Below, one piece after another: positions 6,551 to 19,136 of a DNA stretch of 64,000 bases. The notes under the pieces are model-generated. The model had not been told where the DNA came from and searched no databases. It saw only the letters and a program-made list of their open reading frames with translations. Within the stretch, counting starts at the first letter, position 1. Every line of letters starts with the position of its first letter. This DNA comes from a bacterium (GTDB lineage Bacteria > Patescibacteriota > Patescibacteriia > Patescibacteriales > GWC2-42-12): NCBI GenBank assembly GCA_030650415.1, contig JAUSEG010000005.1, forward strand, positions 23,333-87,332. The letters are read 5' to 3'. The position numbers and the translations under genes are program-made.

Positions 6551-9500
6551 TTAGTAAGATAACTTCGCGCCTATTACTTCAGAAACATTCAATAAGACAT
6601 TTGATACATCCGTACCGGTGCCATTATTGCCATTATAAACGAAACGGTAAGTCAGATCAGCAATCTTCGTCTGGACGAAGTCGCCGGACGCGTCTACGCC
6701 GCTAATATCGCCTTCAATGACGATAGTAACTTCGCCGTCCACATCCTCTGTGGTTCCAGATAATTGCGAGAAGGTAGAAGAGGCTGTTCCTGTACTACCA
6801 TCTTCTTGAACCGCGGTAGTCTTATTGCTGGAATCACCATCAATATAGACCTGGATATTATTCACGAAGACGCCGCTTGAGGTGGCAATGCTTAAGCCCA
6901 AGGTTACTAATCGCGCTTTTAGTTCAGTATTATCGCTGTTTCTGTTACTGCCGTTATTGAAGATGAATTTATACTTACCGATAATCTGATCATTGCCGTT
7001 AGATAGCGTTGTATTGGACATCGGATTAGTAATGGAGGTTAGGACTGAACCGTGAATAGTCGCGGTGGTAGAGGTGGCAACGCCCCACTCGGCGTATTCA
7101 CCGGCAGCCACACTGGCATCAGTATCTTCAACCAAAGTAATGTCATCGCCCAAATCTACGCCCACAGCGGTAACCGCGTCATCGGCCGATAGGCCGAGTT
7201 GAGTCAATTGAGTGCTGGAAGCTAAAGTATAGATTATGGTTTCCGCGTCATCGGCCGTAGCGGAAGGATCGCCTTCCACATTAATACCTCTAGCGGTTAC
7301 GCCAATGAAATATTCATGGACGTTATCCGCCGATAGCACTAAGTTCAAGTCGCTGAAATTGGCATCGCCGAGAGTGCTGACGCCTTTTGAAGCCACTAAG
7401 ACTTCATTCTTGTCATACAACTCAACGGATGCAATATCATCGGCTCTGGCTGTGCCCTGTTGGCCTAAGACTAAAGTCTTAACCTTAATCGGTTCATTAG
7501 CGGTGGTGAAAGTTAACTTGCCGAGATATTTATCTCCGGAAGTAATCTTACTGCCTGCTAAGAGGATCGTATTAGTATTAGACTTTAGATCCGTAACCGT
7601 CAGCTCAACTTTCAATGTACCGGCCGAAGCCAAAGTAAGGGTCCTGGAAAGAGTCGCGGCATTCTTTACGCTTTCCGCCACCGCGTTCGAGTCTTTATCC
7701 TGGGCGACTATGCTAGCCGCTACGCCATCCGCTGTAAGTCCGATAACTCCTGTAGGACTAAAGGTGGACGAGAAATCAGCTTTAACTTCTAAGGTCACGG
7801 TCTTACCGGCGGGAATTACTCTGTTAGTTGTGTCTAAAGAAGTAAAGTTGATATAACCAGCGGTTCCTGAAGCAGGTTCAACGATGCCACCGGCAACTGT
7901 CTTAACCAGCTTGTTGTCAACATAGAGCCGTAACTGGGAAATATTAGTATCGCTAAACGCGCTAGCGACAGTAGAAGTAGAGTGAATCTTAACCGAGGTT
8001 AAAGTAACCGCGGAAGACGCGCCCGCTTCTAAGCTGGCCGCGTAAACGACCACATCCTTAGCGCTCGGCACAATCGTCTTAGCTGTTAAGGCGGTTGTCT
8101 GCCAAGTTAAAGAGGCTGTTTTAACCGTAGCGATAGCGCTTGAAACTGATGTCGGGGTAATGCTGGATTGCAAGCTGGCGTCTGAATCATCGCCGCTAAT
8201 AGTAAAGCCGGTGCTCTTTAGAACAACCTGCAAAGTATCGCTATCAACGGCTGGATTGGTATCGTTCGTACCGGCTACATCTACTTTTATCTGATAAGTC
8301 TTGGTCACGCCCTTAACCAAACTGATTTCATCGGAATTGGTTAATTTGCAATAAGAGGCCGTTGTTGAACTGGCGATAGTTAAATCATAAGATGCGCCAG
8401 TGACCGTGTCTCTTAAGACCGCGTTATCAAGTTTAGTGCAAGATGGGTTTGTACCAGTGATATAAAAGCTATCTGCGCCAGCGCCTAACGCGGTAATGGT
8501 GGCATTTTCACCGGCTGAAAGAACTTTAACGGTAGCTAAAATCACGGCGTTATCGCCCGGCCTAACATCTTTAGACGGAGTAACGGTTTTATCCATATCA
8601 ATTGTAACATCACCGGCCGTTAAAGTAACGACAATGCCCTCGCTAACACCGTCTATATTCGCAAAATAGCTAGAACCAATTTCTATGCCATAACCATAAT
8701 CCTGGCCAGTGAAATATAAATCACCGGCTTCGTAAAAATACAAGTCAATGGTATTAGTGGTATTGCCAATGCCGATATCGCCATAAACTTCAACCGTGAT
8801 GGTGTCATTTTTAGCGATAACTTTATTGAAGCTGAAAGTAACGATCTTATCAACCAATTCGCCGCCCTTGACGACTTCATCGCCATCAATCACCACTCTC
8901 ATGTTGCCAACAATGCCGGCGGTATTGGTGCCGCCATTCTTCATGGCAAAGCCGGAGAAAATAACCGCTTCATTAGCCGCGGTTAAATCAAATTTGGCTA
9001 ATAAGACATTGTCTTCGCCGAAATCATTGGAGGTATCAGAAGTGCCAAGATTTGACATGGTAACCGTACCAATAGTTGAACTGGTAACTGCCTGAACATT
9101 ACCTCTAACCGGGAAAGAGCCGCTTACGGCCGCTCCATTAGTAGTAATGTCGCTAGCCGCGGCAATGCCTAAAGCAAAATTTCCCGATGTTTGGCCCGCA
9201 ACAATCGTGGCTTTGACCACTAAAGATTTAGTGGTTCCGGCCGCGACGACGATCGGTGTAGAAAAATTAAAGGTTGCTTCTTTATCGGAATTTATATTCT
9301 TGGCTGTTCCCACTTTGACGCCGTTATCATAGAAAGTAACGCTGTCAACATAAGTGGCCGTACCCAATTCAAAGGTTTTTAGCTTAATCGCACTAACGCT
9401 TACCGCGCCGTCGTTGGAAGCGGTTAAGTTAATCTTTAAGAACGAAGTCGGTGAACCGGCCGGGATAGTGGAGGCAGCCGCGGTGTCTGAAGCTAAGCTG

Positions 9501-10228
9501 ACGGTTAAGCCAGAGCCCGCGCCGATTGATCCGCCCGCGCCTGACGAAGTATCAGTTAGGGTGGCAACCGCGCCCGAGATGCTAGCGCCAACAACCGGTT
9601 TAGCGATCGTGGCGGTGATAACATCAGCCCATTTAAATCTGTTGGCTAAGAAAGCCGCTTCGGTAGCGATCTTTGAAGCTGTGGTATCAGCATTGATAAG
9701 ATAAACATCAGCTTCAGTGCCAAACTTCACTAAACTGCCCTGAGGATAAGAGGTCGCGCTGACTACGCTGGTAAGGGTAATGTAGTTGGTAAAGAAAGCG
9801 TCAGACACATCAATAATCCTCTTATTCCATTGTGATCCGAATAAAGTCGCGGCCGTCGCTTCATCAGGAACGCCCACTAAAGAGCCTCCGGCGACAACGG
9901 CGTAAACTTTCGGATTAGTAGTAATTTTAACTAATTTAGTACCCGGTCTAACGGTGACATTCTTACCCAGAGGATATGACTCTAACTCGCTTTGAGAAAT
10001 AGTCACAACGCTGGAGAAATCACTGTACCAGGAAAAATAAGTTGACTCATTAGGGAAAACATATCTCTTTCCGTCAGCGGCCAAGTAATAAACGGACGAA
10101 AGTCCGCTCATCTTGATTAAGTCACCGGCTGAAGCGTTGGCACTCACATTAGGAGCTACCACTACGCTCATTGATAAGACGGTAACGAAAATTACGCCTG
10201 CGGCAAAGATTTTCTTGAATCTTTCCAT
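6551..10228 (-). CDS. Very large secreted surface (S-layer-like/adhesin-like) protein
   Basis: Start moved to MERFKKIFAAGVIFVTVLSMSVVVAPNVSANA (signal peptide). About 1225 aa, rich in A/T/S/V/G and free of Cys. At least 5 divergent ~110-130-aa modules recur with the pattern ...V.LYD.....V......F.F.....I.AG.T....V.ADI. Confidence 0.7.
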   Translation of the reverse strand: MERFKKIFAAGVIFVTVLSMSVVVAPNVSANASAGDLIKMSGLSSVYYLAADGKRYVFPNESTYFSWYSDFSSVVTISQSELESYPLGKNVTVRPGTKLVKITTNPKVYAVVAGGSLVGVPDEATAATLFGSQWNKRIIDVSDAFFTNYITLTSVVSATSYPQGSLVKFGTEADVYLINADTTASKIATEAAFLANRFKWADVITATIAKPVVGASISGAVATLTDTSSGAGGSIGAGSGLTVSLASDTAAASTIPAGSPTSFLKINLTASNDGAVSVSAIKLKTFELGTATYVDSVTFYDNGVKVGTAKNINSDKEATFNFSTPIVVAAGTTKSLVVKATIVAGQTSGNFALGIAAASDITTNGAAVSGSFPVRGNVQAVTSSTIGTVTMSNLGTSDTSNDFGEDNVLLAKFDLTAANEAVIFSGFAMKNGGTNTAGIVGNMRVVIDGDEVVKGGELVDKIVTFSFNKVIAKNDTITVEVYGDIGIGNTTNTIDLYFYEAGDLYFTGQDYGYGIEIGSSYFANIDGVSEGIVVTLTAGDVTIDMDKTVTPSKDVRPGDNAVILATVKVLSAGENATITALGAGADSFYITGTNPSCTKLDNAVLRDTVTGASYDLTIASSTTASYCKLTNSDEISLVKGVTKTYQIKVDVAGTNDTNPAVDSDTLQVVLKSTGFTISGDDSDASLQSSITPTSVSSAIATVKTASLTWQTTALTAKTIVPSAKDVVVYAASLEAGASSAVTLTSVKIHSTSTVASAFSDTNISQLRLYVDNKLVKTVAGGIVEPASGTAGYINFTSLDTTNRVIPAGKTVTLEVKADFSSTFSPTGVIGLTADGVAASIVAQDKDSNAVAESVKNAATLSRTLTLASAGTLKVELTVTDLKSNTNTILLAGSKITSGDKYLGKLTFTTANEPIKVKTLVLGQQGTARADDIASVELYDKNEVLVASKGVSTLGDANFSDLNLVLSADNVHEYFIGVTARGINVEGDPSATADDAETIIYTLASSTQLTQLGLSADDAVTAVGVDLGDDITLVEDTDASVAAGEYAEWGVATSTTATIHGSVLTSITNPMSNTTLSNGNDQIIGKYKFIFNNGSNRNSDNTELKARLVTLGLSIATSSGVFVNNIQVYIDGDSSNKTTAVQEDGSTGTASSTFSQLSGTTEDVDGEVTIVIEGDISGVDASGDFVQTKIADLTYRFVYNGNNGTGTDVSNVLLNVSEVIGAKLSY

Positions 10229-10243
10229 AGATAAATTTTGTTT

Positions 10244-10290
10244 ACCCTGTGAAATCCCTACGGGATGCGTAGCATATTTCACAGGGTGAA
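10244..10290. repeat. Type-2 hairpin element in the leader of the surface-protein gene
   Basis: ACCCTGTGAAAT-CCCTACGGGATGCGTAGCAT-ATTTCACAGGGTGAA. It ends 15 nt upstream of the ATG at 10228. Confidence 0.75.
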
Positions 10291-10728
10291 TCCGGTTAAA
10301 TAATAAAATTATTTAACCTGGATGCTTGACTCGTTTTTTAAATTAAGATCTTGGCAAATCAACCGGAATCCCGCTCCCCCGCGAAAAAAATACGATTTTT
10401 CTGGCTTCGCCAGATCTGGCATAGCCAGACAATTTACGATTTTCGAATTTAGAATTTTAATTCGTAATTCGAAATTCATAATTCGTAATTCCTTCTGGGG
10501 GTTAGCTTGCTGATTTACCTCGTGGCTCGCGACGATCAATCGCGGAGCCGTATCCCGGGACTAGCCCGGGACTAGAAATTTAAAAAACAAGTTGATTAAT
10601 TAGATTGGCAAAGTCTCCATCGAAATGGATCGACCATTTATAACTTTACCGTAACCCGCTTAATGCGGATTAGAGAATTTCTCTCAATTAAGAGATAAAC
10701 TATCTAATCAACACTAATTGTTTAGTAT

Positions 10729-12096: not shown

Positions 12097-12678
12097 TCAA
12101 GTATTTAAATTTATTTTTTCATCTTGGCTTAAAAGTCCTTTTAGGGCGTTCAAAGACCGATAAATTAAAATTCTAACATTGCCTCTTGATTTGTCTAAAA
12201 CCTCGGCGATTTCTTTAATGGAAAGTTCGTTGATAAAACGCAAAATTATTATTTCGCGATATTCGTCTTTCAACTCCGGTAATTTAGATTCTAAAACCAA
12301 GAGATCGGCTTTAAATTCCATGTCATAATGCGGACTCTGCTTTTCGTCGGCGACTTTAATTCCGTTTTCATCATCCAGACTAACGGTTTCTCGGCCCTTG
12401 GTTTTTCGGTAATGATCAATAATCAAATTTCTGGAAATTTTATAGAGCAGGGCCTTCAGCGTTTTATAATCCTTCAAATTATCTTTCAAAATATAATGCC
12501 AGGTCTTTAGAAACACGGCTGAACATAAATCCTCCGCCTCCTCGCGATTGCCTACCTTGAAATAAATAAATCGATACAGTTGATCAACATATAAATCATA
12601 AGCTCTAACAAAGGCATTTTTATCATTTTGCTTTATCTTATGCAGCAATAGTTTTTCTTCAATCTTGCCTATCTTCAT
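12097..12678 (-). CDS. RNA polymerase sigma factor, ECF/sigma-70 family
   Basis: Region 2 (YDLYVDQLYRFIYFKV..EAEDL..VFLK.W) and a region 4 HTH (EYREIIILRFINELSIKEIAEVLDKSRGNVRILIYRSLNALK). Confidence 0.85.
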   Translation of the reverse strand: MKIGKIEEKLLLHKIKQNDKNAFVRAYDLYVDQLYRFIYFKVGNREEAEDLCSAVFLKTWHYILKDNLKDYKTLKALLYKISRNLIIDHYRKTKGRETVSLDDENGIKVADEKQSPHYDMEFKADLLVLESKLPELKDEYREIIILRFINELSIKEIAEVLDKSRGNVRILIYRSLNALKGLLSQDEKINLNT

Positions 12679-12716
12679 TTAATTATACGTAAAAATTAGA
12701 GTATTGTTACAGTTTA

Positions 12717-12916
12717 CCCCGTGAAATAGCTTCGCACCCCGTTAAAACGGGGATTTCATGGGGTGAACCCCGTGAAATTGCTTCGCACCCCGTTAAAACG
12801 GGGATTTCATGGGGTGAACCCCGTGAAATTACTTCGCACCCCGTTAAAACGGGGATTTCATGGGGTGAACCCCGTGAAATTACTTCGCACCCCGTTAAAA
12901 CGGGGATTTCACGGGG
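12717..12916. repeat. Tandem array of four 51-bp type-2 hairpin units
   Basis: Units start at 12717, 12768, 12819 and 12870. Each unit is CCCCGTGAAATnnCTTCGCACCCCGTTAAAACGGGGATTTCA(T/C)GGGG(TGAA). There are no spacers. The array lies about 38 nt upstream of the sigma-factor ATG. Confidence 0.9.
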
Positions 12917-13062
12917 CAAATAAAAAAATAATCGTAGTAAACGAAAATAATTTGCTAAAATAAGCTATTTTTTTCTCATGCGGGATTCCGTCCAGCTGGA
13001 GAATAAATATATTGATTATAATAACATATAGATAAGCGAAAAGCAATAAAAACTCTCACAAT

Positions 13063-13186
13063 TGTCATTCTGGCCTACGAGCCGGAATCCAGAGTTCAAT
13101 AGCAAAGACGTTAATCATTCAACGTTCTTTAATAATTCACATTCCTACGGCTCACTCCTGGATTGCGGGTCAAGCCCGCAATGACA
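13063..13186. repeat. Type-1 mosaic palindromic element
   Basis: TGTCATTCTGGCC...CCCGCAATGACA with GGAATCCAG / CTGGATTGC inner arms. Confidence 0.8.
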
Positions 13187-13237
13187 TGTGGGTGTCTTGC
13201 ATTATTAAAAATAATGTGCAAAAATGTAGGTAACTTA

Positions 13238-13389
13238 CTTTAGTCTAGGTTGGCGTGGACTTAAATCATTATTTAAATAATAATACTTTAGTCTACAGTA
13301 GCGTGGACTTAAAGTTAACTACTCATAAACCCTAGCACCTTTTAAAAGGTGTCTGGGTAAACTTAAGTCTACAGTAGCGTAGACTTAAC
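13238..13389 (+). promoter_or_regulatory. Three ~27-bp direct repeats, each an internal palindrome (candidate operators or iterons)
   Basis: 13238-13265 CTTTAGTCTAGGTTGGCGTGGACTTAAA; 13287-13313 (TAGTCTACAGTAGCGTGGACTTA); 13362-13389 CTTAAGTCTACAGTAGCGTAGACTTAAC (perfect 8-bp arms AAGTCTAC/GTAGACTT). The last repeat ends 8 nt before the ATG at 13397. Confidence 0.55.
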
Positions 13390-13396
13390 TCCTAAA

Positions 13397-13705
13397 ATGA
13401 CACAAGATCAACTTAACCTAATAAACGACAATAAAATAAAAGCAGATGATACTGCTGATCAGGTTTTAAATAATGAAATTATTAAACCAATTTGGATTTC
13501 CGTTTCCGAGGGCGCCAAACTTGGCGGAGTGCAAACTAAAACTATTCGCCGCGCTATTCAATATAATTATGTTAAATACAAAATAGTTAGCAATCGTTAT
13601 TTAATTGACTTCCCTACTTTGATCACCTATTTGCACACTAAAACCAAGCTCAAAAATAAATTAAACCAATTCGGCCTAGGCCAATATGTGGATAAGTGGA
13701 AATAA
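13397..13705 (+). CDS. Small helix-turn-helix DNA-binding protein (excisionase/MerR-like HTH)
   Basis: 102 aa. WISVSEGAKLGGVQTKTIRRAIQ has the pattern of excisionase-type HTH domains. Confidence 0.5.
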   Translation: MTQDQLNLINDNKIKADDTADQVLNNEIIKPIWISVSEGAKLGGVQTKTIRRAIQYNYVKYKIVSNRYLIDFPTLITYLHTKTKLKNKLNQFGLGQYVDKWK

Positions 13706-13708
13706 TTA

Positions 13709-13792
13709 TGTCATTCTGGAGGGAGCGTCAGCGACCGATAGAATCTCATGGGATCCTATTGCTTCTCCGCCAGCTGGCGGATCGCAATGACA
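13709..13792. repeat. Type-1 mosaic palindromic element
   Basis: TGTCATTCTGGAGGG...CCGCCAGCTGGCGGATCGCAATGACA, 3 nt after the HTH gene's stop. Confidence 0.8.
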
Positions 13793-14227
13793 TAAATATT
13801 TATCACCCCTTAACCGGGGTTTTTTATTTGACAGCTACTAATAAATATTGCCCTGTGGATAAAAATTTGCTATAATAAAAACATAAACAAAACTTATCCC
13901 CACCTTTCGGAGGATAAACCCCAGGCTTATGTTTTGTTACTGCAGTCATTTTTTTCAACTAAATTTGAATGGGATTTTTATATAAAAATCGGCTGACTTT
14001 TGTTGTCGATTTTTTGTTTTCAAAAATAACTATTTATCAACCAATGCTGTAAAAAGTCGAACGCCCTTAAACCGGCGTACAGCATAAAACATTTGATAAA
14101 TTAAATTAATAATAAAATCTCCATGCCTAGGCATAGGCGCGTAGATAAATAAAAAAAGTAAAAATTAATATTCTGTTAGGCCTAAATATTAATTTTTATT
14201 AATTAAATTTAAGAAATTAAAAAGACT

Positions 14228-15016
14228 ATGAAAAAATTAATTAAATCAAAACTGTTTCTGCAGGTAATTGTCGCCTCCATGGTTGCCACGTTGGCCACGG
14301 CTGGAATTGTCGGCGCCGTTTCTACAATCGGAGCCAACATTAGTACTGCCGGAACTTTAAATGTAGATTCAGGCACTCTCTATGTCGGCACAACTGATCG
14401 GGTCGGCATCGGCACAACCACGCCATTCGCGAGCTTATCCATTAATAACATCAGCGGCGACAATGCCTTGGTTATCGGTTCGTCCACCGCCACCTGGCTA
14501 AAGGTTGACGCTTCCGGCTTATTGACGGTTGCCAAAGGCGCGACTTTCTCAGATACTCTGGCCGTCACCGGAGCCGCGACTCTTTCCAGCACTTTAGCAT
14601 CCGGCGCGCTTACAGTTACCGGAGCTGCTACTATTTCGACCACTTTAGGCGTAACCGGTGATCTTTCTTTTGTCAACGCTTCATCTACCGGCACAACCAA
14701 ACTTTCAGTAATTACCTCCGACACCGGATCAATTAGCTTTAGCAATGAAAACCTAACCACTACCGGCAATCTGGCTTTCGCCACGGCTTCTTCCACCGGC
14801 CAGGTAAAAGTAGATACTCTGGGCGTAGCTTCCACTACTCCTGCTAATGGATATCAATTAAGCGTTGGCAATGGGGCGTCAGCCAGCTCAACTGTCAGTA
14901 TGGGTAAATTCTGTATGTTTGCCGGACAGGAAGATGGAACAATGGTCTATATCAGATTAAGTTCTACGGCAGCTAATAATTCGCCGTTCGCCACCTCAAC
15001 CATTCCGTGTAATTAG
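14228..15016 (+). CDS. Secreted fibre-like protein (tail-fibre-like G/T/A/S repeats)
   Basis: Signal/TM segment at the N-terminus. VGIGTTTPFASLSI resembles the GIGT..P...L motif of bacterial tail-fibre-like proteins. Periodic LxVTGAATxSSTL repeats. C-terminal Cys pair. Confidence 0.55.
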   Translation: MKKLIKSKLFLQVIVASMVATLATAGIVGAVSTIGANISTAGTLNVDSGTLYVGTTDRVGIGTTTPFASLSINNISGDNALVIGSSTATWLKVDASGLLTVAKGATFSDTLAVTGAATLSSTLASGALTVTGAATISTTLGVTGDLSFVNASSTGTTKLSVITSDTGSISFSNENLTTTGNLAFATASSTGQVKVDTLGVASTTPANGYQLSVGNGASASSTVSMGKFCMFAGQEDGTMVYIRLSSTAANNSPFATSTIPCN

Positions 15017-15050
15017 TAATTTATAAAGCCAAATTAATTAATTAAACTCT

Positions 15051-16523
15051 ATGAAAAAAATTCTAGTGATAACTGTCTTGGCTTTATTCTTGGCTACTCT
15101 GTCGGTTCTGGCGGTGACAGACTCGGATTTCACGGCTGACGATAATGTTGCCGTCACCTTGAATCTTAACGGCGTTGCCGGTGCCACCGAAGCTACTTTA
15201 ATGATTAAAAGCGGCTCTGAAGCGCGCAGTTTGGTAATTAACAGCATCGGCACTCTTGATATAGTTAACGCCAGTAGTACCTCTTTTAAGCTCTATTCAA
15301 CCGATACTAACGCCGGAGCCATTAAAGTCGCGAGTTCCACTACGCTGGTTAGCTGTACCGACTTCGCGGATGCTACTTTAAGCAGTCCGGTTACCATCGC
15401 CTCAAGCACCATGTACATTTCCACTTCCACTATTACTCTGATTGACCTGGATAATGCCCTGACCTATAATGATTCTTGCGGCGCGGCTTCATGCGATGTT
15501 GGTTATAGTCCATCAGGATCAAACGCAGACGCGACTTGCGTTCGCAATACTGGCGGTTCTAACCCGCCCAGCGGAGGAAGTCCTAGTCCAGTTACTTGCA
15601 CATCCGTAGTTTATGATATCTGGCAGACCGCCTGCACCAGCGGCTGGCAATACCGCAACGTTACATCGCAAAGCCCATCCGGCTGTACTTTAACCACCGC
15701 CCAAGAGAATGACAAAAAGAAGTCATGTACTGCTGCTGCTTGCACCTCCGTAGTTTATACTGACTGGCAAACCGCCTGCACCAGCGGCTGGAGATACCGC
15801 ACCGTTACATCGCAAAGTCCGTCCGGCTGTGCCTTAACTACCGCCCAAGAGAATGACAAGAAAAAAGCCTGCGTCTCCCCCGCCACTCCGGCGACTCCGG
15901 CAACGCCTGCTACGCCAGCTCAAGCCGCCGACCAGATAAAGAATATCGTCGCTGAAGCCGCGACGATCGCCGGACGCAGTGTTGAATCGGTCTTAGCTGC
16001 TGTCGGCGCGATGCAAGACGCCAAAGCCGAAGCCGCGGCCGAAAAAAAATATACTAATAGTTTAGTCAGCGGTTTAAAAAACATCACAGCCGAAATTAAA
16101 TCAGCCATCACCAACTTCATAAATTACGGCACCCCGACCACCCTAAAATTAGGCGCGGGCGAAAGAGCCGGCGTAATTAGTTCTTATAGAGCCGCTTTCG
16201 GCAAAGTGCCGGCTACCGAAACTGAATGGTCTGATGCGATTAAAATCGCTAATGGCCGCTGGCCAACCGCCAGAAGCGCCGCCGCCGAAGCTCAAGCTAA
16301 AGTTGAATTTAAGAAAGTTTACAAGCGAACACCGAATATGAATCAAACTAATGACAACGCCGCGGTTACCGTAATTTCTTATGGCTTAAGGCCGGGCAAC
16401 AGAAATCTGAATAGCGAAAAAGCCGCCATTAAAAGCTTTAAAGCGATTTATGGCCACGCGCCAGTGTCAGCAATAGCCTGGGATATCGTACGCGCTATCG
16501 CCTACTCAGGAGCAACCAGATAA
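15051..16523 (+). CDS. Secreted protein with two tandem Cys-rich 44-aa repeats, a PATP linker and a conserved C-terminal domain of unknown function
   Basis: Signal peptide MKKILVITVLALFLATLSVLA. Repeats CTSVVY..WQTACTSGW.YR.VTSQSPSGC.LTTAQENDKKK.C occur twice (about 15598-15870). (PAT)4 linker. Confidence 0.6.
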   Translation: MKKILVITVLALFLATLSVLAVTDSDFTADDNVAVTLNLNGVAGATEATLMIKSGSEARSLVINSIGTLDIVNASSTSFKLYSTDTNAGAIKVASSTTLVSCTDFADATLSSPVTIASSTMYISTSTITLIDLDNALTYNDSCGAASCDVGYSPSGSNADATCVRNTGGSNPPSGGSPSPVTCTSVVYDIWQTACTSGWQYRNVTSQSPSGCTLTTAQENDKKKSCTAAACTSVVYTDWQTACTSGWRYRTVTSQSPSGCALTTAQENDKKKACVSPATPATPATPATPAQAADQIKNIVAEAATIAGRSVESVLAAVGAMQDAKAEAAAEKKYTNSLVSGLKNITAEIKSAITNFINYGTPTTLKLGAGERAGVISSYRAAFGKVPATETEWSDAIKIANGRWPTARSAAAEAQAKVEFKKVYKRTPNMNQTNDNAAVTVISYGLRPGNRNLNSEKAAIKSFKAIYGHAPVSAIAWDIVRAIAYSGATR

Positions 16524-16538
16524 TAGGCCAATACAGAT

Positions 16539-16571
16539 AAACCCCCCACCAAATTTTGGTGGGGGGGTTTT
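16539..16571 (+). terminator. Rho-independent terminator
   Basis: AAACCCCCCACC-AAATTTT-GGTGGGGGGGTTTT, 16 nt after the stop at 16523. Confidence 0.8.
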
Positions 16572-16624
16572 AGTTTACAAGGATCCTTGAAGCGCCTAGC
16601 CAAACTTATCAAATTCCAAAAACT

Positions 16625-16657
16625 AAAAATACCTCGGCTAATGCCGAGGTATTTTTT
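16625..16657 (-). terminator. Rho-independent terminator after the HU gene
   Basis: AAAAATACCTCGGC-nnnn-GCCGAGGTATTTTT palindrome, with U-runs on either strand. Confidence 0.75.
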
Positions 16658-16674
16658 ATGGTTAAAACAGAAAT

Positions 16675-16956
16675 TTATAAAACCGCTTCTTTGGCCGCTT
16701 TAGCCACTCTGAATTTAACTACTGTCTTGGCCTTAATCTGAATGGATTCACCGGTCGCCGGGTTTCTGCCCATTCTGGCCGCGCGGTTGATTTTAACCAA
16801 TTTACCCAATCCCGGGATAACGAATTCGCCATTCTTTTTAACCTCTTTCAAGGCTAAAATGGCTAACTTCTCCATAAAACTTCCGACATCCTTCTTAGTC
16901 ATGCCGGTCTCGCCCGCCATAGCGTCTAACAATTGAGACTTTGTCAATTTTGACAT
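16675..16956 (-). CDS. hup: HU/IHF-family nucleoid DNA-binding protein
   Basis: 93 aa. MSKLTKSQLLDAMA...GFGKL-like GLGKLVKINRAARMGRNPATGESIQI arm motif. Confidence 0.9.
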   Translation of the reverse strand: MSKLTKSQLLDAMAGETGMTKKDVGSFMEKLAILALKEVKKNGEFVIPGLGKLVKINRAARMGRNPATGESIQIKAKTVVKFRVAKAAKEAVL

Positions 16957-17683: not shown

Positions 17684-18064
17684 TTAGATTTTCCATAATC
17701 CATGCAAATTGCAATAGGCGCGAACCTCTATTACTTCGCCCTCAACCGTAAAATCCGCTCTGGCCTGGCGATCCAATTCCGGCTTTAAATATTTTTTATA
17801 AACACGGCTAGTCGTTAAAATTTCAATCCATTCAATATAGTGAGCGGCTTCCATCGGATGCTCGGCCGAACCGACCTTAACCGTTACTTTATCGCCAACC
17901 GCTTCCATAACCGGCACATGTTTTTCCAGCGAAGCGTCAACGGTATTTTCAACTTGCAAAACCATGGGCTGGCCGCAGCAAACTAAAGTACCCTTGCCTT
18001 CATGAACTACCTCAATTATATTGCCGCAATCAGCGCATTTATAAACTTGGTTTAAAATAGTCAT
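17684..18064 (-). CDS. dfx: Desulfoferrodoxin (2Fe superoxide reductase)
   Basis: Start moved to MTILNQVYKC. N-terminal desulforedoxin CxxC...CC, then C-terminal EKHVP, EHPM..HYIEWIE and CNLHGLW motifs. Confidence 0.85.
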   Translation of the reverse strand: MTILNQVYKCADCGNIIEVVHEGKGTLVCCGQPMVLQVENTVDASLEKHVPVMEAVGDKVTVKVGSAEHPMEAAHYIEWIEILTTSRVYKKYLKPELDRQARADFTVEGEVIEVRAYCNLHGLWKI

Positions 18065-18142
18065 ATTTTTTAAATTTAATTTTAAACGTGAAAACCGCCA
18101 TGGCGACTGAAACAAAATTTTACCAGGTCGTAAACAAACCAG

Positions 18143-18225
18143 TGGATGGGGAAGGATTTGAACCTTCGAAGGCGTGAGCCAACAGATTTACAGTCTGTCC
18201 CATTTGACCGCTTTGGTACCCATCC
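18143..18225 (-). tRNA. tRNA-Tyr (GTA) with long variable arm
   Basis: GGATGGG/CCCATCC acceptor, anticodon loop CTGTAAA, 15-nt variable arm, T arm GAAGG-TTCAAAT-CCTTC, discriminator A. Confidence 0.85.
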
Positions 18226-18277
18226 AATATATAGGTACTGTCGCCGAATAATTTTTCGGATATAGTACCGTCTAATG

Positions 18278-18549
18278 AGCCGTTGCGCGGAATTGAACCG
18301 CGGACCTACTCCTTCATTTACACCTCTTTTTGTTAAACACATATAAGAGGATTAGACTGTATCTTAGGCATGTTCTATTACTAGAATTTAGCCTCCCTTG
18401 TCAGTCGTTCGAGCGCTTTTACGCGCTACGGTCTTAGCCTTGTGTCGGCCTTTAACCGTGATTCGAGATTCAATAGAAAATTTATTCTCTAAGGGGCAGG
18501 AGTCAAATGACCCACCATGGAGTTGCTCTACCAGCTGAGCTACAACGGC
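18278..18549 (-). tRNA. tRNA-Thr (GGT) interrupted between nt 36 and 37 by a 199-nt intron
   Basis: Exon 1 (18549-18514): GCCGTTGTAGCTCAGCTGGTAGAGCAACTCCATGGT. Exon 2 (18314-18278): AAGGAGTAGGTCCGCGGTTCAATTCCGCGCAACGGCT. Joined, they give a perfect 73-nt cloverleaf with 7/7 acceptor, 4/4 D, 5/5 anticodon and 5/5 T stems, G1-C72 and C2-G71. Confidence 0.8.
18315..18513 (-). ncRNA. Putative group I self-splicing intron in the tRNA-Thr anticodon loop
   Basis: The 5' exon ends in U and the intron ends in G (..GUAAAUG). The intron's 5' ACUCCU-GCC can pair with the 3' exon AGGAGU (P10) and the 5' exon GGU (P1 with a G-U wobble). A P9-like hairpin CCUCUU..AAGAGG and CCUAAG / CUAAAUUCUAG strings resemble tRNA group I introns. 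Confidence 0.65.
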
Positions 18550-19136
18550 AATAAACTTATTAATTTATTTTTTAATTTGATATTCCCATAATAAACTGTT
18601 AATACCCCATACTTACTTTTTTTCTTATAGGTTCCTAAACTTCCACTTTTCGTAACAAACGGTTTGTAAAACTGCTTCTTTTCGACTTTCAATTTTTTAG
18701 TCCAATACATTAAAGCTTCATCTATATTAATATCGGAAAAGGTATGTAAATGGAATTTTAAATCTTTTTTATTTATATTAAAAAATTTTATTAAAAATTC
18801 TATAAACTTATTCAATAACGCGGCATCGGAGTTGCCAAGTCTTACCGTATTTTTATTAGCCCTATTGCCTTCACCCCAGTATAATCCAATACCCAAACCA
18901 AACAATTTTGCCTCTTCTAAATTTTTTGGCGAAATAAATTCAAAAGGATCGCCATCCGGATTATGTTTTATATAAACCGCCTCACTTATTGTTCTTTTTG
19001 ATATCTTATATTTTTTCAACCAGTAATTTATTCTATTTGGCGAACAACTAATCAACTTGGAGATTTCTGAGGCAGACTTATGCTGGTCAATATATAAATT
19101 ATTAAGATATTCAAAAGTAATCTCATTGTTCTCCAT
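18540..19136 (-). CDS. Free-standing LAGLIDADG-like homing endonuclease with N-terminal HTH
   Basis: 198 aa. LFGLGIGLYWGEGN fits the LAGLIDADG-type motif (helix followed by GEG). The N-terminal SASEISKLISCSPNRINYWLKK is HTH-like. Its stop codon TAG is formed by tRNA-Thr nt 8-10. Confidence 0.5.
   Translation of the reverse strand: MENNEITFEYLNNLYIDQHKSASEISKLISCSPNRINYWLKKYKISKRTISEAVYIKHNPDGDPFEFISPKNLEEAKLFGLGIGLYWGEGNRANKNTVRLGNSDAALLNKFIEFLIKFFNINKKDLKFHLHTFSDINIDEALMYWTKKLKVEKKQFYKPFVTKSGSLGTYKKKSKYGVLTVYYGNIKLKNKLISLLPL

Follow-up and report, generated by a model that had tools for sequence, protein, structure and literature searches.

Modular surface and S-layer proteins of Gram-positive bacteria that are anchored by SLH domains (three repeats), CWB2 or LysM domains combine a conserved terminal module with varied adhesin-like passengers (Ig-like, fn3, beta-helix). 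Here we describe a locus that shares this layout in a 64,000-nucleotide stretch of Patescibacteria DNA, called the window below (GenBank assembly GCA_030650415.1, contig JAUSEG010000005.1, positions 23,333 to 87,332). It contains a block of three genes encoding a small helix-turn-helix (HTH) protein, a secreted fiber-like protein and a 490-amino-acid (aa) protein with a conserved C-terminal domain. The ultra-small Patescibacteria are believed to spend their lives attached to other cells, and outside Saccharibacteria we know of almost nothing on the composition of their surface. An original prediction, made from the sequence of the window, regarded the block as a surface-protein module left behind by a mobile element or phage, or as a host-attachment locus of an episymbiont. 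The secreted, surface-type character of the two larger proteins holds, but the mobile or phage origin does not. We think it likely that the block is instead a chromosomal, positionally fixed, fast-evolving cell-surface locus typical of Falkowbacteria-like Patescibacteria, members of the candidate phyla radiation (CPR).

The three open reading frames (ORFs) lie on the plus strand at positions 13397 to 13705 (102 aa, HTH_17-type small DNA-binding protein), 14228 to 15016 (262 aa, fiber-like protein) and 15051 to 16523 (490 aa). As predicted, the ORF list contains no other plus-strand block of three genes. Nearly all other convincing genes of the window are on the minus strand, the sole exception being a GT4 glycosyltransferase gene at 1071 to 2321. 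The strong terminator expected on the right was found as a bidirectional hairpin at 16542 to 16566 (11 base pairs, including 8 G-C pairs, with a T-run behind it), which closes the operon of the fiber and 490-aa genes.

The position of the block is conserved. In the gene tables of relatives, whose loci are numbered L001 and so on, leftward genes for a giant protein, a DUF5667 protein and a sigma factor are followed by rightward genes for the HTH protein, the fiber protein and a protein with the conserved C-terminal domain, and then by a leftward gene for HU; beyond HU come genes for a TPR protein, aldolase, TIM, an S11 peptidase, ScpB and ScpA. This order and these flanks recur in at least 15 Patescibacteria genomes (the syntenic loci include L001/L002, L004, L006, L008, L011, L018, L028, L033, L041, L070, L079 and L082), and homologues in syntenic contigs are 41 to 65% identical. 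A tblastn search with seven window proteins against the fetched loci placed the frame from sigma and HTH to HU in about 20 of them, with the sigma and HTH genes as divergent neighbors in 19. Because the same frame occurs in about 20 loci, the block did not arise by insertion into this genome.

What lies between the HTH gene and HU varies, as the original prediction had suggested might be seen among relatives: the content ranges from 0 to 12 kb, and in 15 genomes the HTH stop codon and HU are 0.7 to 12.2 kb apart. The original prediction had named a syntenic block, invariant across the lineage, among the grounds for its refutation; flanks and order are conserved, and the content of the slot is not. 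The slot of this window holds two genes, for the fiber-like and 490-aa proteins, and that of L018 extends up to 12 kb. In L018, L041, L026, L027, L032 and L070 it holds single genes or pairs encoding proteins of 850 to 2,900 aa (1,200 to 2,900 aa in the large versions), which carry Big_5, CarboxypepD_reg, fn3 or beta-helix domains. The slot of L038 is empty, with HU starting 50 bp after the HTH gene (18826 to 18877), directly past the HTH terminator, and L028 (a 289-kb contig) retains at 9916 to 10543 only a remnant equal to residues 310 to 490, without a signal peptide. The slot therefore shows presence/absence polymorphism between conserved flanks, with the HTH gene as part of the conserved flank and outside the variable content. 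In every occupied slot, the protein encoded by the last gene ends in the conserved helical C-terminal domain.

The closest relative, L011 (GW2011_GWC2_42_12), illustrates how unevenly the locus diverges. Identity is 99% for HU, 91% for the giant protein, 87% for the sigma factor and 78% for the HTH protein. Within the 490-aa protein it is 80% in the C-terminal part and 62% in the N-terminal part, and only residues 1 to 81 of the fiber protein can be aligned (58%). This uneven divergence, together with the broken fiber gene of L011, argues that the exposed parts turn over fast inside a fixed frame.

Two features of slots in relatives deserve mention in their own right. At 7421 to 8238 of L011, the fiber gene is split into three ORFs (75, 128 and 97 aa) with a duplicated segment (MWLQLRLWEFCQ...). 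Possible explanations are a pseudogene with frameshifts, repeats that collapsed in the assembly and programmed variation. In L041 (1913 to 3658) and L026 (409 to 2172), a gene for a Cache-HAMP-HisKA-HATPase sensor kinase lies between the HTH gene and the giant surface-protein genes, and no response regulator was seen in these kinase loci.

The 490-aa protein consists of a variable part (15051 to 15914) and a conserved, all-helical C-terminal domain (15915 to 16523, residues 289 to 490). The variable part comprises a signal peptide (residues 1 to 21), a beta domain (about 22 to 165), two Cys-repeat beta units (about 181 to 276) and a disordered PATP linker (277 to 288). An AlphaFold model, in which the beta domain spans about 26 to 165 and the Cys-repeat units about 180 to 275, has a mean predicted local distance difference test score (pLDDT) of 84.7, with the C-terminal helical domain (289 to 485) mostly above 90. 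The GIGTTTP motif of the fiber protein, the PATP linker (PATPATP) and the conserved C terminus, all noted in the original prediction, are present. It had also described two 44-aa repeats with six Cys residues each; the repeat is real, but the unit in the DNA (15595 to 15867) is 144 nt, or 48 aa, with 1.9 copies that are 87% identical and 4 Cys residues per unit. Like thrombospondin type-1 repeats, these units are small, Cys-rich and beta-structured, with a W...C..G.Q.R spacing, and one homologue (P0057) bears the NCBI name "thrombospondin type-1 domain-containing protein", yet it has no Pfam match. We rejected a TSP1 (PF00090) identity, since the Cys repeats score 11.7 bits (E-value of 0.32) against a cutoff of 21.6 and have 4 rather than 6 Cys residues.

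The C-terminal domain starts with three lead-in helices, which are followed by three helical hairpins. The hairpins are mutually homologous, with hhalign E-values of 4e−6 between the first and third and 7.5e−6 between the second and third; the comparison of the first and second was not significant. The repeat of about 42 aa follows the motif (G/S)E(R/K)A..I.S(F/Y)(R/K)A.(F/Y)G..P.....W. Invariant residues of the domain include Y359-G360-T361, G368..E371-R372, W393, D395, G402-R403-W404-P405 and Y444-G445-L446, and further R451, E456, W477, R481 and Y485-S486-G487. Its 86 occurrences lie on proteins of about 320 to 3,256 aa, and 81 of them run exactly to the stop codon; among the proteins left intact by contig ends, most have a signal-peptide-like N terminus. 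A scan that took one genome for each GTDB species detected 405 proteins related to the 490-aa protein, several per genome. A hidden Markov model (HMM) scan of 1.84 billion cluster representatives found the domain in 1,779 clusters at 50% identity, 960 of them at E-values of ≤1e−30; the proteins are 221 to 3,605 aa long, and the match nearly always reaches the last residue. All named homologues of the three block proteins come from Patescibacteria (Falkowbacteria, Parcubacteria, Kuenenbacteria and Komeilibacteria) or carry the unclassified label "bacterium", and the few records with other organism titles look like binning or labeling errors.

Database searches connected the domain with no described family. 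Nothing significant was obtained for the three proteins with Pfam, PHROGs and NCBIfam, and PDB sequence searches with the single proteins and with profiles A1 and A2 returned only noise. The C-terminal domain had no Pfam, NCBIfam, PDB-sequence, PDB-fold or BFVD match. Foldseek, which the original prediction had recommended, gave no match with an E-value of ≤0.001 for the 490-aa and fiber models, the former searched against PDB and BFVD and the latter against BFVD. The domain has a terminal position on secreted proteins with diverse passengers and is built from tandem internal repeats. As in SLH-type anchors, there are three tandem repeats behind a Pro/Thr linker and several paralogues per genome. 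From this architecture of variable passengers, Pro/Thr linker, terminal triple repeat and paralogues, and by analogy, we infer that the C-terminal domain acts as a cell envelope anchor.

The HTH gene has a promoter-like site, TTGCAT-N17-AAAAAT (13197 to 13225, plus strand), that we read from the sequence; it is kept in L011, L001 and L028 but was missed by the promoter scan, and its role is presumed. Between this site and the gene, a pattern search (family D3) revealed three operator-like palindromes, AGTCTAC-N6-GTAGACT, at 13242 to 13261, 13290 to 13309 and 13366 to 13385 of the plus strand. Only 0.63 such sites are expected by chance, and none of 100 shuffles reached 4. In 20 of 21 related loci, the 400 bp upstream of the HTH gene contain 1 to 4 operator-like sites (at least 3 in 17 loci), and almost none lie elsewhere in these loci. 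The remainder of the window is almost devoid of half-sites, and a search of the window for a regulon, that is, for operators or half-sites elsewhere, found none. In a clade with a different HTH recognition region, the half-site is altered too (AGTCCA...TGGACT). A terminator-like hairpin and T-run (13805 to 13828, plus strand; hairpin at 13805 to 13820) follows the HTH gene, and L011, L028 and L001 have a similar hairpin after theirs. The restriction of the palindromes to the leader of the HTH gene suggests that the protein autoregulates its expression, and their location downstream of a conserved promoter-like site is the arrangement that would be expected for autorepression.

The core of the HTH protein, WLSVSEAAKxGGVQTKTIRRAIQ...NRY, is conserved across 26 genomes, and the orthologues share a conserved tail, KLKNKLNQxGLGQYVDKWK. 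PF12728 (HTH_17) is matched by 25 of the 26 orthologues at E-values of ≤0.1 (the best being 2.4e−9), and 19 match MerR. The copy in the window falls below every family threshold, without a Pfam match at an E-value of ≤0.1 and with 13.3 bits against a cutoff of 28.8 for TIGR01764, so that its assignment rests on the orthologues. The original prediction had called the protein excisionase-like. This is correct at the level of the fold family, since the HTH core and the small size are those of the HTH_17/MerR-N/excisionase group (PF12728, TIGR01764), and there is a weak similarity to Gp37 of mycobacteriophage Pukovnik (PDB 4j2n; E-value of 0.64). However, there is no sign of excision. The neighborhood contains no integrase as an excisionase partner, and the nearby sites are symmetric palindromes in the leader of the gene itself. 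Judged from these sequence features, the HTH protein behaves like a chromosomal autoregulator and not like a recombination directionality factor.

The 435-bp gap between the HTH and fiber genes (13793 to 14227), which the original prediction took to be noncoding, is not empty. In addition to the HTH terminator, it contains a TG-extended promoter-like site, TTGCCC-N17-TATAAT (13848 to 13876, plus strand; 10 of 12 matches), and a structured 5' leader (13877 to 14227, plus strand) with two conserved hairpins. The promoter-like site is kept in L011, L006 and L054, and L001 and L008 have an equivalent site. The leader (354 nt) folds far better than shuffled sequences (z = −4.83). Its first hairpin (14032 to 14102), with a conserved unpaired AAAGGTCGA, has 20 pairs, of which 8 show compensatory changes. 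The second (14161 to 14196), with the sequence AATTAATA-loop-TTA-GGCC-TAA-A-TATTAATT, has a T-run behind it; its pairing is 95.5%, a value not reached by any of 500 shuffles, against 30 to 49% in slid controls, and 5 pairs have two-sided changes. Its distance to the fiber start codon downstream is 40 to 50 nt in 13 of 15 loci and about 105 nt in the remaining two, and the hairpin moves with the fiber gene when this gene is relocated within the slot (L018, L024 and L048). We also considered the invariant 45-nt block before the fiber gene as a sigma-70 or ECF (extracytoplasmic function) promoter and rejected this, since there are no convincing hexamers and the two-sided changes favor a hairpin. 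No Rfam 15 family reaches its gathering score in the window except for two tRNAs, and within 12600 to 14300 there are only chance-level Rfam matches at E-values of ≤1. A covariance model run over 1.19 Mb (window and loci) recovered the training sequences and no further copies of the leader hairpin.

The fiber-like protein is 100% identical to a protein of a metagenome-assembled genome at NCBI (locus tag Q7K35_00580), and its family has 71 matches, all from Patescibacteria or unnamed metagenome records. The hydrophobic N terminus varies as a signal peptide does. The most conserved part is the mature N terminus after an AxA-like site, (A/V)(S/T)TIGxN(I/V)xTxGT; then follow a hypervariable shaft rich in T, S, G and A, with DRVGIGTTTP in some members only, and a small C-terminal beta domain closed by two Cys residues. 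The shaft resembles those phage tail-fiber shafts that carry the motif (N/D)RVGIGTT.P: TLYVGTTDRVGIGTTTP of the fiber protein matches TLHVDATNDRVGIGTTSP of a 917-aa tail-fiber-like ORF on an IMG/VR viral contig. PHROG 5906, which has no assigned function, matches the fiber protein with an E-value of 3.9e−5, and tail-fiber proteins top the list of a BFVD fold search that was not significant (best E-value of 0.015, probability of 0.23). However, tblastn detected no match in 50,697 phage records, and the gene has no phage genes around it. The conserved N terminus and C-terminal Cys pair also led us to consider a type IV pilin, but there is no prepilin motif of the G/FTLIE type and the hydrophobic segment varies like a signal peptide. 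Antibody matches in the PDB sequence search (best E-value of 0.006) look like an effect of the Ser/Thr-rich composition.

The conserved frame, the variable slot and the shared C-terminal domain are observations, and we keep them apart from the following mechanism, which is a proposal. A dimer of the HTH_17 protein would bind the three palindromes between its own promoter and start codon and so repress its own synthesis, and the HTH transcript would end at its own terminator. The separate promoter at 13848 to 13876 would drive a single transcript of a leader of about 350 nt, the fiber gene and the 490-aa gene, ending at 16542 to 16566, and the leader hairpins probably set mRNA stability, termination or translation. 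Both surface proteins would be exported via Sec signal peptides. The 490-aa protein would then be held on the envelope by its three-repeat helical domain, displaying the variable beta domain and the Cys repeats on the Pro/Thr linker, with the fiber protein as a second exposed component. The exposed parts would diversify fast for attachment to hosts or particles or for evasion of phages or predators, while the anchor, the HTH protein and the flanks would stay conserved. In its most far-reaching form, which we put forward tentatively and with more doubt than confidence, the three-hairpin domain would be a new class of envelope anchor that defines the exposed surface proteome of one CPR branch, and two undescribed devices would control the hypervariable slot, namely, an HTH_17 autoregulator with a triple operator and a structured leader (the AAAGGUCGA hairpin and the GGCC-tetraloop hairpin) that travels with the fiber gene.

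Several points weigh against this picture. The anchor role is argued from architecture, and the best Foldseek matches are insignificant. The model of the fiber protein is mediocre (pLDDT of 72), the signal peptides were judged by eye, and the leader hairpins were derived from the same sequences that were used for the pair counts. No operator lies near the fiber promoter, and hence nothing indicates that the HTH protein controls the surface genes. Moreover, L038 keeps the HTH gene without any cassette, and the HTH protein may serve the divergent sigma operon, or only itself.

These last points lead to the alternative that survives best. The HTH_17 protein might not be tied to the surface cassette, being either a partner of the operon for the ECF-type sigma factor, anti-sigma factor and giant protein or a purely autoregulated nucleoid-type protein, and two unrelated units would then lie side by side. 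We regard this as doubtful but as a serious contender. The operators occur only upstream of the HTH gene, which has a terminator of its own just as the fiber operon has a promoter of its own; the gene persists without a cassette in L038, and the sigma and HTH genes are divergent neighbors in 19 loci. However, the operators lie about 0.6 to 0.7 kb from the sigma start codon, which the sigma promoter-like site directly abuts, and an occupied slot always has its cassette after the HTH gene. In any case, this explanation would modify the autorepression step of the proposed mechanism rather than replace the whole.

The main alternative to an anchor role concerns the C-terminal domain itself, which could be a catalytic or effector module, such as a wall-modifying enzyme or a toxin delivered to the host, with the N-terminal parts serving for targeting or delivery. 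The domain has many invariant charged residues (E371, R372, D395, R403, E413, R426, D435, R451, E456 and R481) and matches no known anchor family. It is also an all-helical domain at the extreme C terminus of very long proteins, and polymorphic toxin systems have the same layout. In those systems, however, it is the C termini that vary, whereas here the C terminus is the most conserved part and the N termini vary. No small immunity-like gene follows, the next gene always being that for HU. Three tandem helical-hairpin repeats are found more typically in binding modules, and each genome has several paralogues on unrelated adhesin-like scaffolds. We therefore consider an effector role unlikely and retain the envelope anchor as the preferred reading of the domain.

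The weakest explanation, a remnant of a mobile element or prophage in which an excisionase-like gene and tail-fiber-like genes were inserted between repeats, has in its favor the fold family of the HTH protein, the weak PHROG matches of the fiber protein (E-value of 3.9e−5) and the 490-aa protein (to a tail protein, E-value of 0.0096), the fiber-shaft motif shared with one tail-fiber-like protein on an IMG/VR contig, the insignificant tail-fiber matches at the top of the BFVD list, the variable slot that is empty in L038, the copies of a repeat element on both sides of the HTH gene and a tRNA-Trp gene 0.7 kb to the right, but it is largely refuted and in our view very improbable, since the block keeps its position and flanks in at least 15 genomes, neither Pfam on the flanking ORFs nor the orthologous gene tables show an integrase, recombinase or transposase, tblastn against the 50,697 phage records found no homologues, the C-terminal domain is absent from 2.9 million IMG/VR viral contigs, the HTH gene and operators are retained where the slot is empty, and the repeat elements are dispersed and differ between relatives. 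The att-like direct repeats that the original prediction proposed to look for at the borders were not found; there are only low-complexity repeats of 13 to 19 nt, none of which joins the left border (12680 to 13400) to the right border (16520 to 16680).

The repeats themselves, a tandem array and a palindromic element on the left, exist where the original prediction placed them, but they do not delimit the block. The array (12716 to 12916) has 3.9 copies of a 51-bp unit with 98% matches; each unit is internally palindromic and holds nested palindromes (CCCCGTTAAAACGGGG). It lies just upstream of the promoter of the sigma gene, is specific to the window and is missing at the equivalent position in the closest relatives L011, L028 and L001. 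The palindromic element (13063 to 13186) has the terminal inverted repeats (TIRs) TGTCATTCTGG...GCAATGACA (TGTCATT...AATGACA) and occupies an insertion hot spot: at this place L011 and L028 have a different palindromic element and L001 has one of the same family. A second copy (13710 to 13791) follows immediately after the HTH stop codon, just upstream of the gap discussed above; it is present in L006 and L011 and absent in L001 and L008. The family comprises four complete copies of 68 to 122 bp dispersed over the window, and the terminal motif occurs 10 times against 1.7 expected, including further solo end-motif matches. As short noncoding elements with TIRs and several dispersed copies, these are miniature inverted-repeat transposable element (MITE)-like elements.

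One complete copy (1686 to 1774) lies in frame inside the GT4 glycosyltransferase gene, much as palindromic elements of Rickettsia do in their genes. It lengthens the protein by about 30 residues, introduces no stop codon and maps to the linker that separates the Glyco_transf_4 match (residues 13 to 184) from the Glycos_transf_1 match (235 to 391). Between the array and the first element, an intergenic block of about 85 bp (12921 to 13006, aligned by eye; AAAAAATAATCGT..AAACGAA...GCGGGATTCCGTCCAGCTGGAGAATA, containing AATAATCGT) is near-identical in the window, L011, L028 and L001, whose proteins differ by 13 to 30%. In L002, one gene caller placed an 87-aa ORF over the equivalent DNA. The sigma gene has a promoter-like site, GTAACA-N17-TATAAT, at 12682 to 12710 on the minus strand, which is kept in L011, L028 and L001. 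Because this site ends 3 nt before the sigma start codon (12678), it suggests that the sigma mRNA is leaderless or near-leaderless.

The wider neighborhood of the block is envelope-related. To the left lie genes for a UDP-sugar dehydrogenase, the GT4 protein, a Wzy_C-TPR protein, a PA14 protein, a 1,243-aa secreted protein, a DUF5667 protein and an ECF-type sigma factor; DUF5667 proteins are the usual anti-sigma partners of such a sigma factor. To the right lie HU, tRNA-Trp, L33, desulfoferrodoxin, tRNA-Tyr, a TPR protein, aldolase, TIM and a d,d-carboxypeptidase; the gene for L33 and those for ScpA and ScpB beyond it were positioned by synteny with the gene tables of relatives. The 1,243-aa protein (6551 to 10282), encoded downstream of the sigma and DUF5667 genes, has no Pfam domain and is 91% identical in L011 and 38 to 60% identical in other relatives. 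The sigma, DUF5667 and giant-protein trio is kept wherever the HTH gene is found. On the right, the desulfoferrodoxin gene (17684 to 18115) and a 198-aa ORF with only a weak DUF3606 match (18540 to 19136) lie on opposite sides of tRNA-Tyr, and neither is listed for L001, L004 or L008 in the gene tables of these syntenic loci. The stretch from 17684 to 19136 may be a real accessory insertion near the block. The G+C content of the block is 0.44 to 0.50, that of the neighboring giant surface-protein gene is 0.455 to 0.48, and the raised content of the block is presumably an effect of its Ala/Thr/Gly-rich amino acid composition. A search of the literature on DUF5667 or Falkowbacteria surface proteins yielded nothing relevant.

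The locus offers several handles on the biology of these bacteria. A single C-terminal module in about 1,800 clusters is a sequence handle for candidate surface and attachment proteins of this CPR branch. A positionally fixed slot whose contents turn over rapidly is an obvious site in which to look for host range determinants. In bacteria for which hardly any regulation has been described, the triple operator and the covarying hairpins of the leader provide regulatory elements open to direct testing.

How does the locus then compare with the described systems? Its repeats are, like MITEs and REP (repetitive extragenic palindromic)-like elements such as the Rickettsia palindromic elements, short, TIR-bearing and intergenic, with one in frame in a gene, but unlike in a model in which such elements border the block, they do not delimit it. 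In contrast to phage tail fibers, the fiber protein has a Sec signal peptide, a lineage-specific mature N terminus and no phage neighbors. The HTH protein differs from the excisionase family by the absence of an integrase or attachment site nearby, by an extra conserved C-terminal tail and by the three perfect palindromes in its own leader. The C-terminal domain is without sequence or fold homology to SLH, CWB2, LysM and peptidoglycan-binding modules and has a helical-hairpin motif of its own; homology was tested and not found, and the relation to SLH-type anchors is one of analogy, not of membership. In summary, the locus follows a known design in a form specific to its lineage, in which the anchor-like domain family, the HTH_17 protein with its triple operator and the structured leader are undescribed. 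It overturns no existing concept; rather, it represents the version of one bacterial lineage of the combination of a variable passenger with a conserved anchor.

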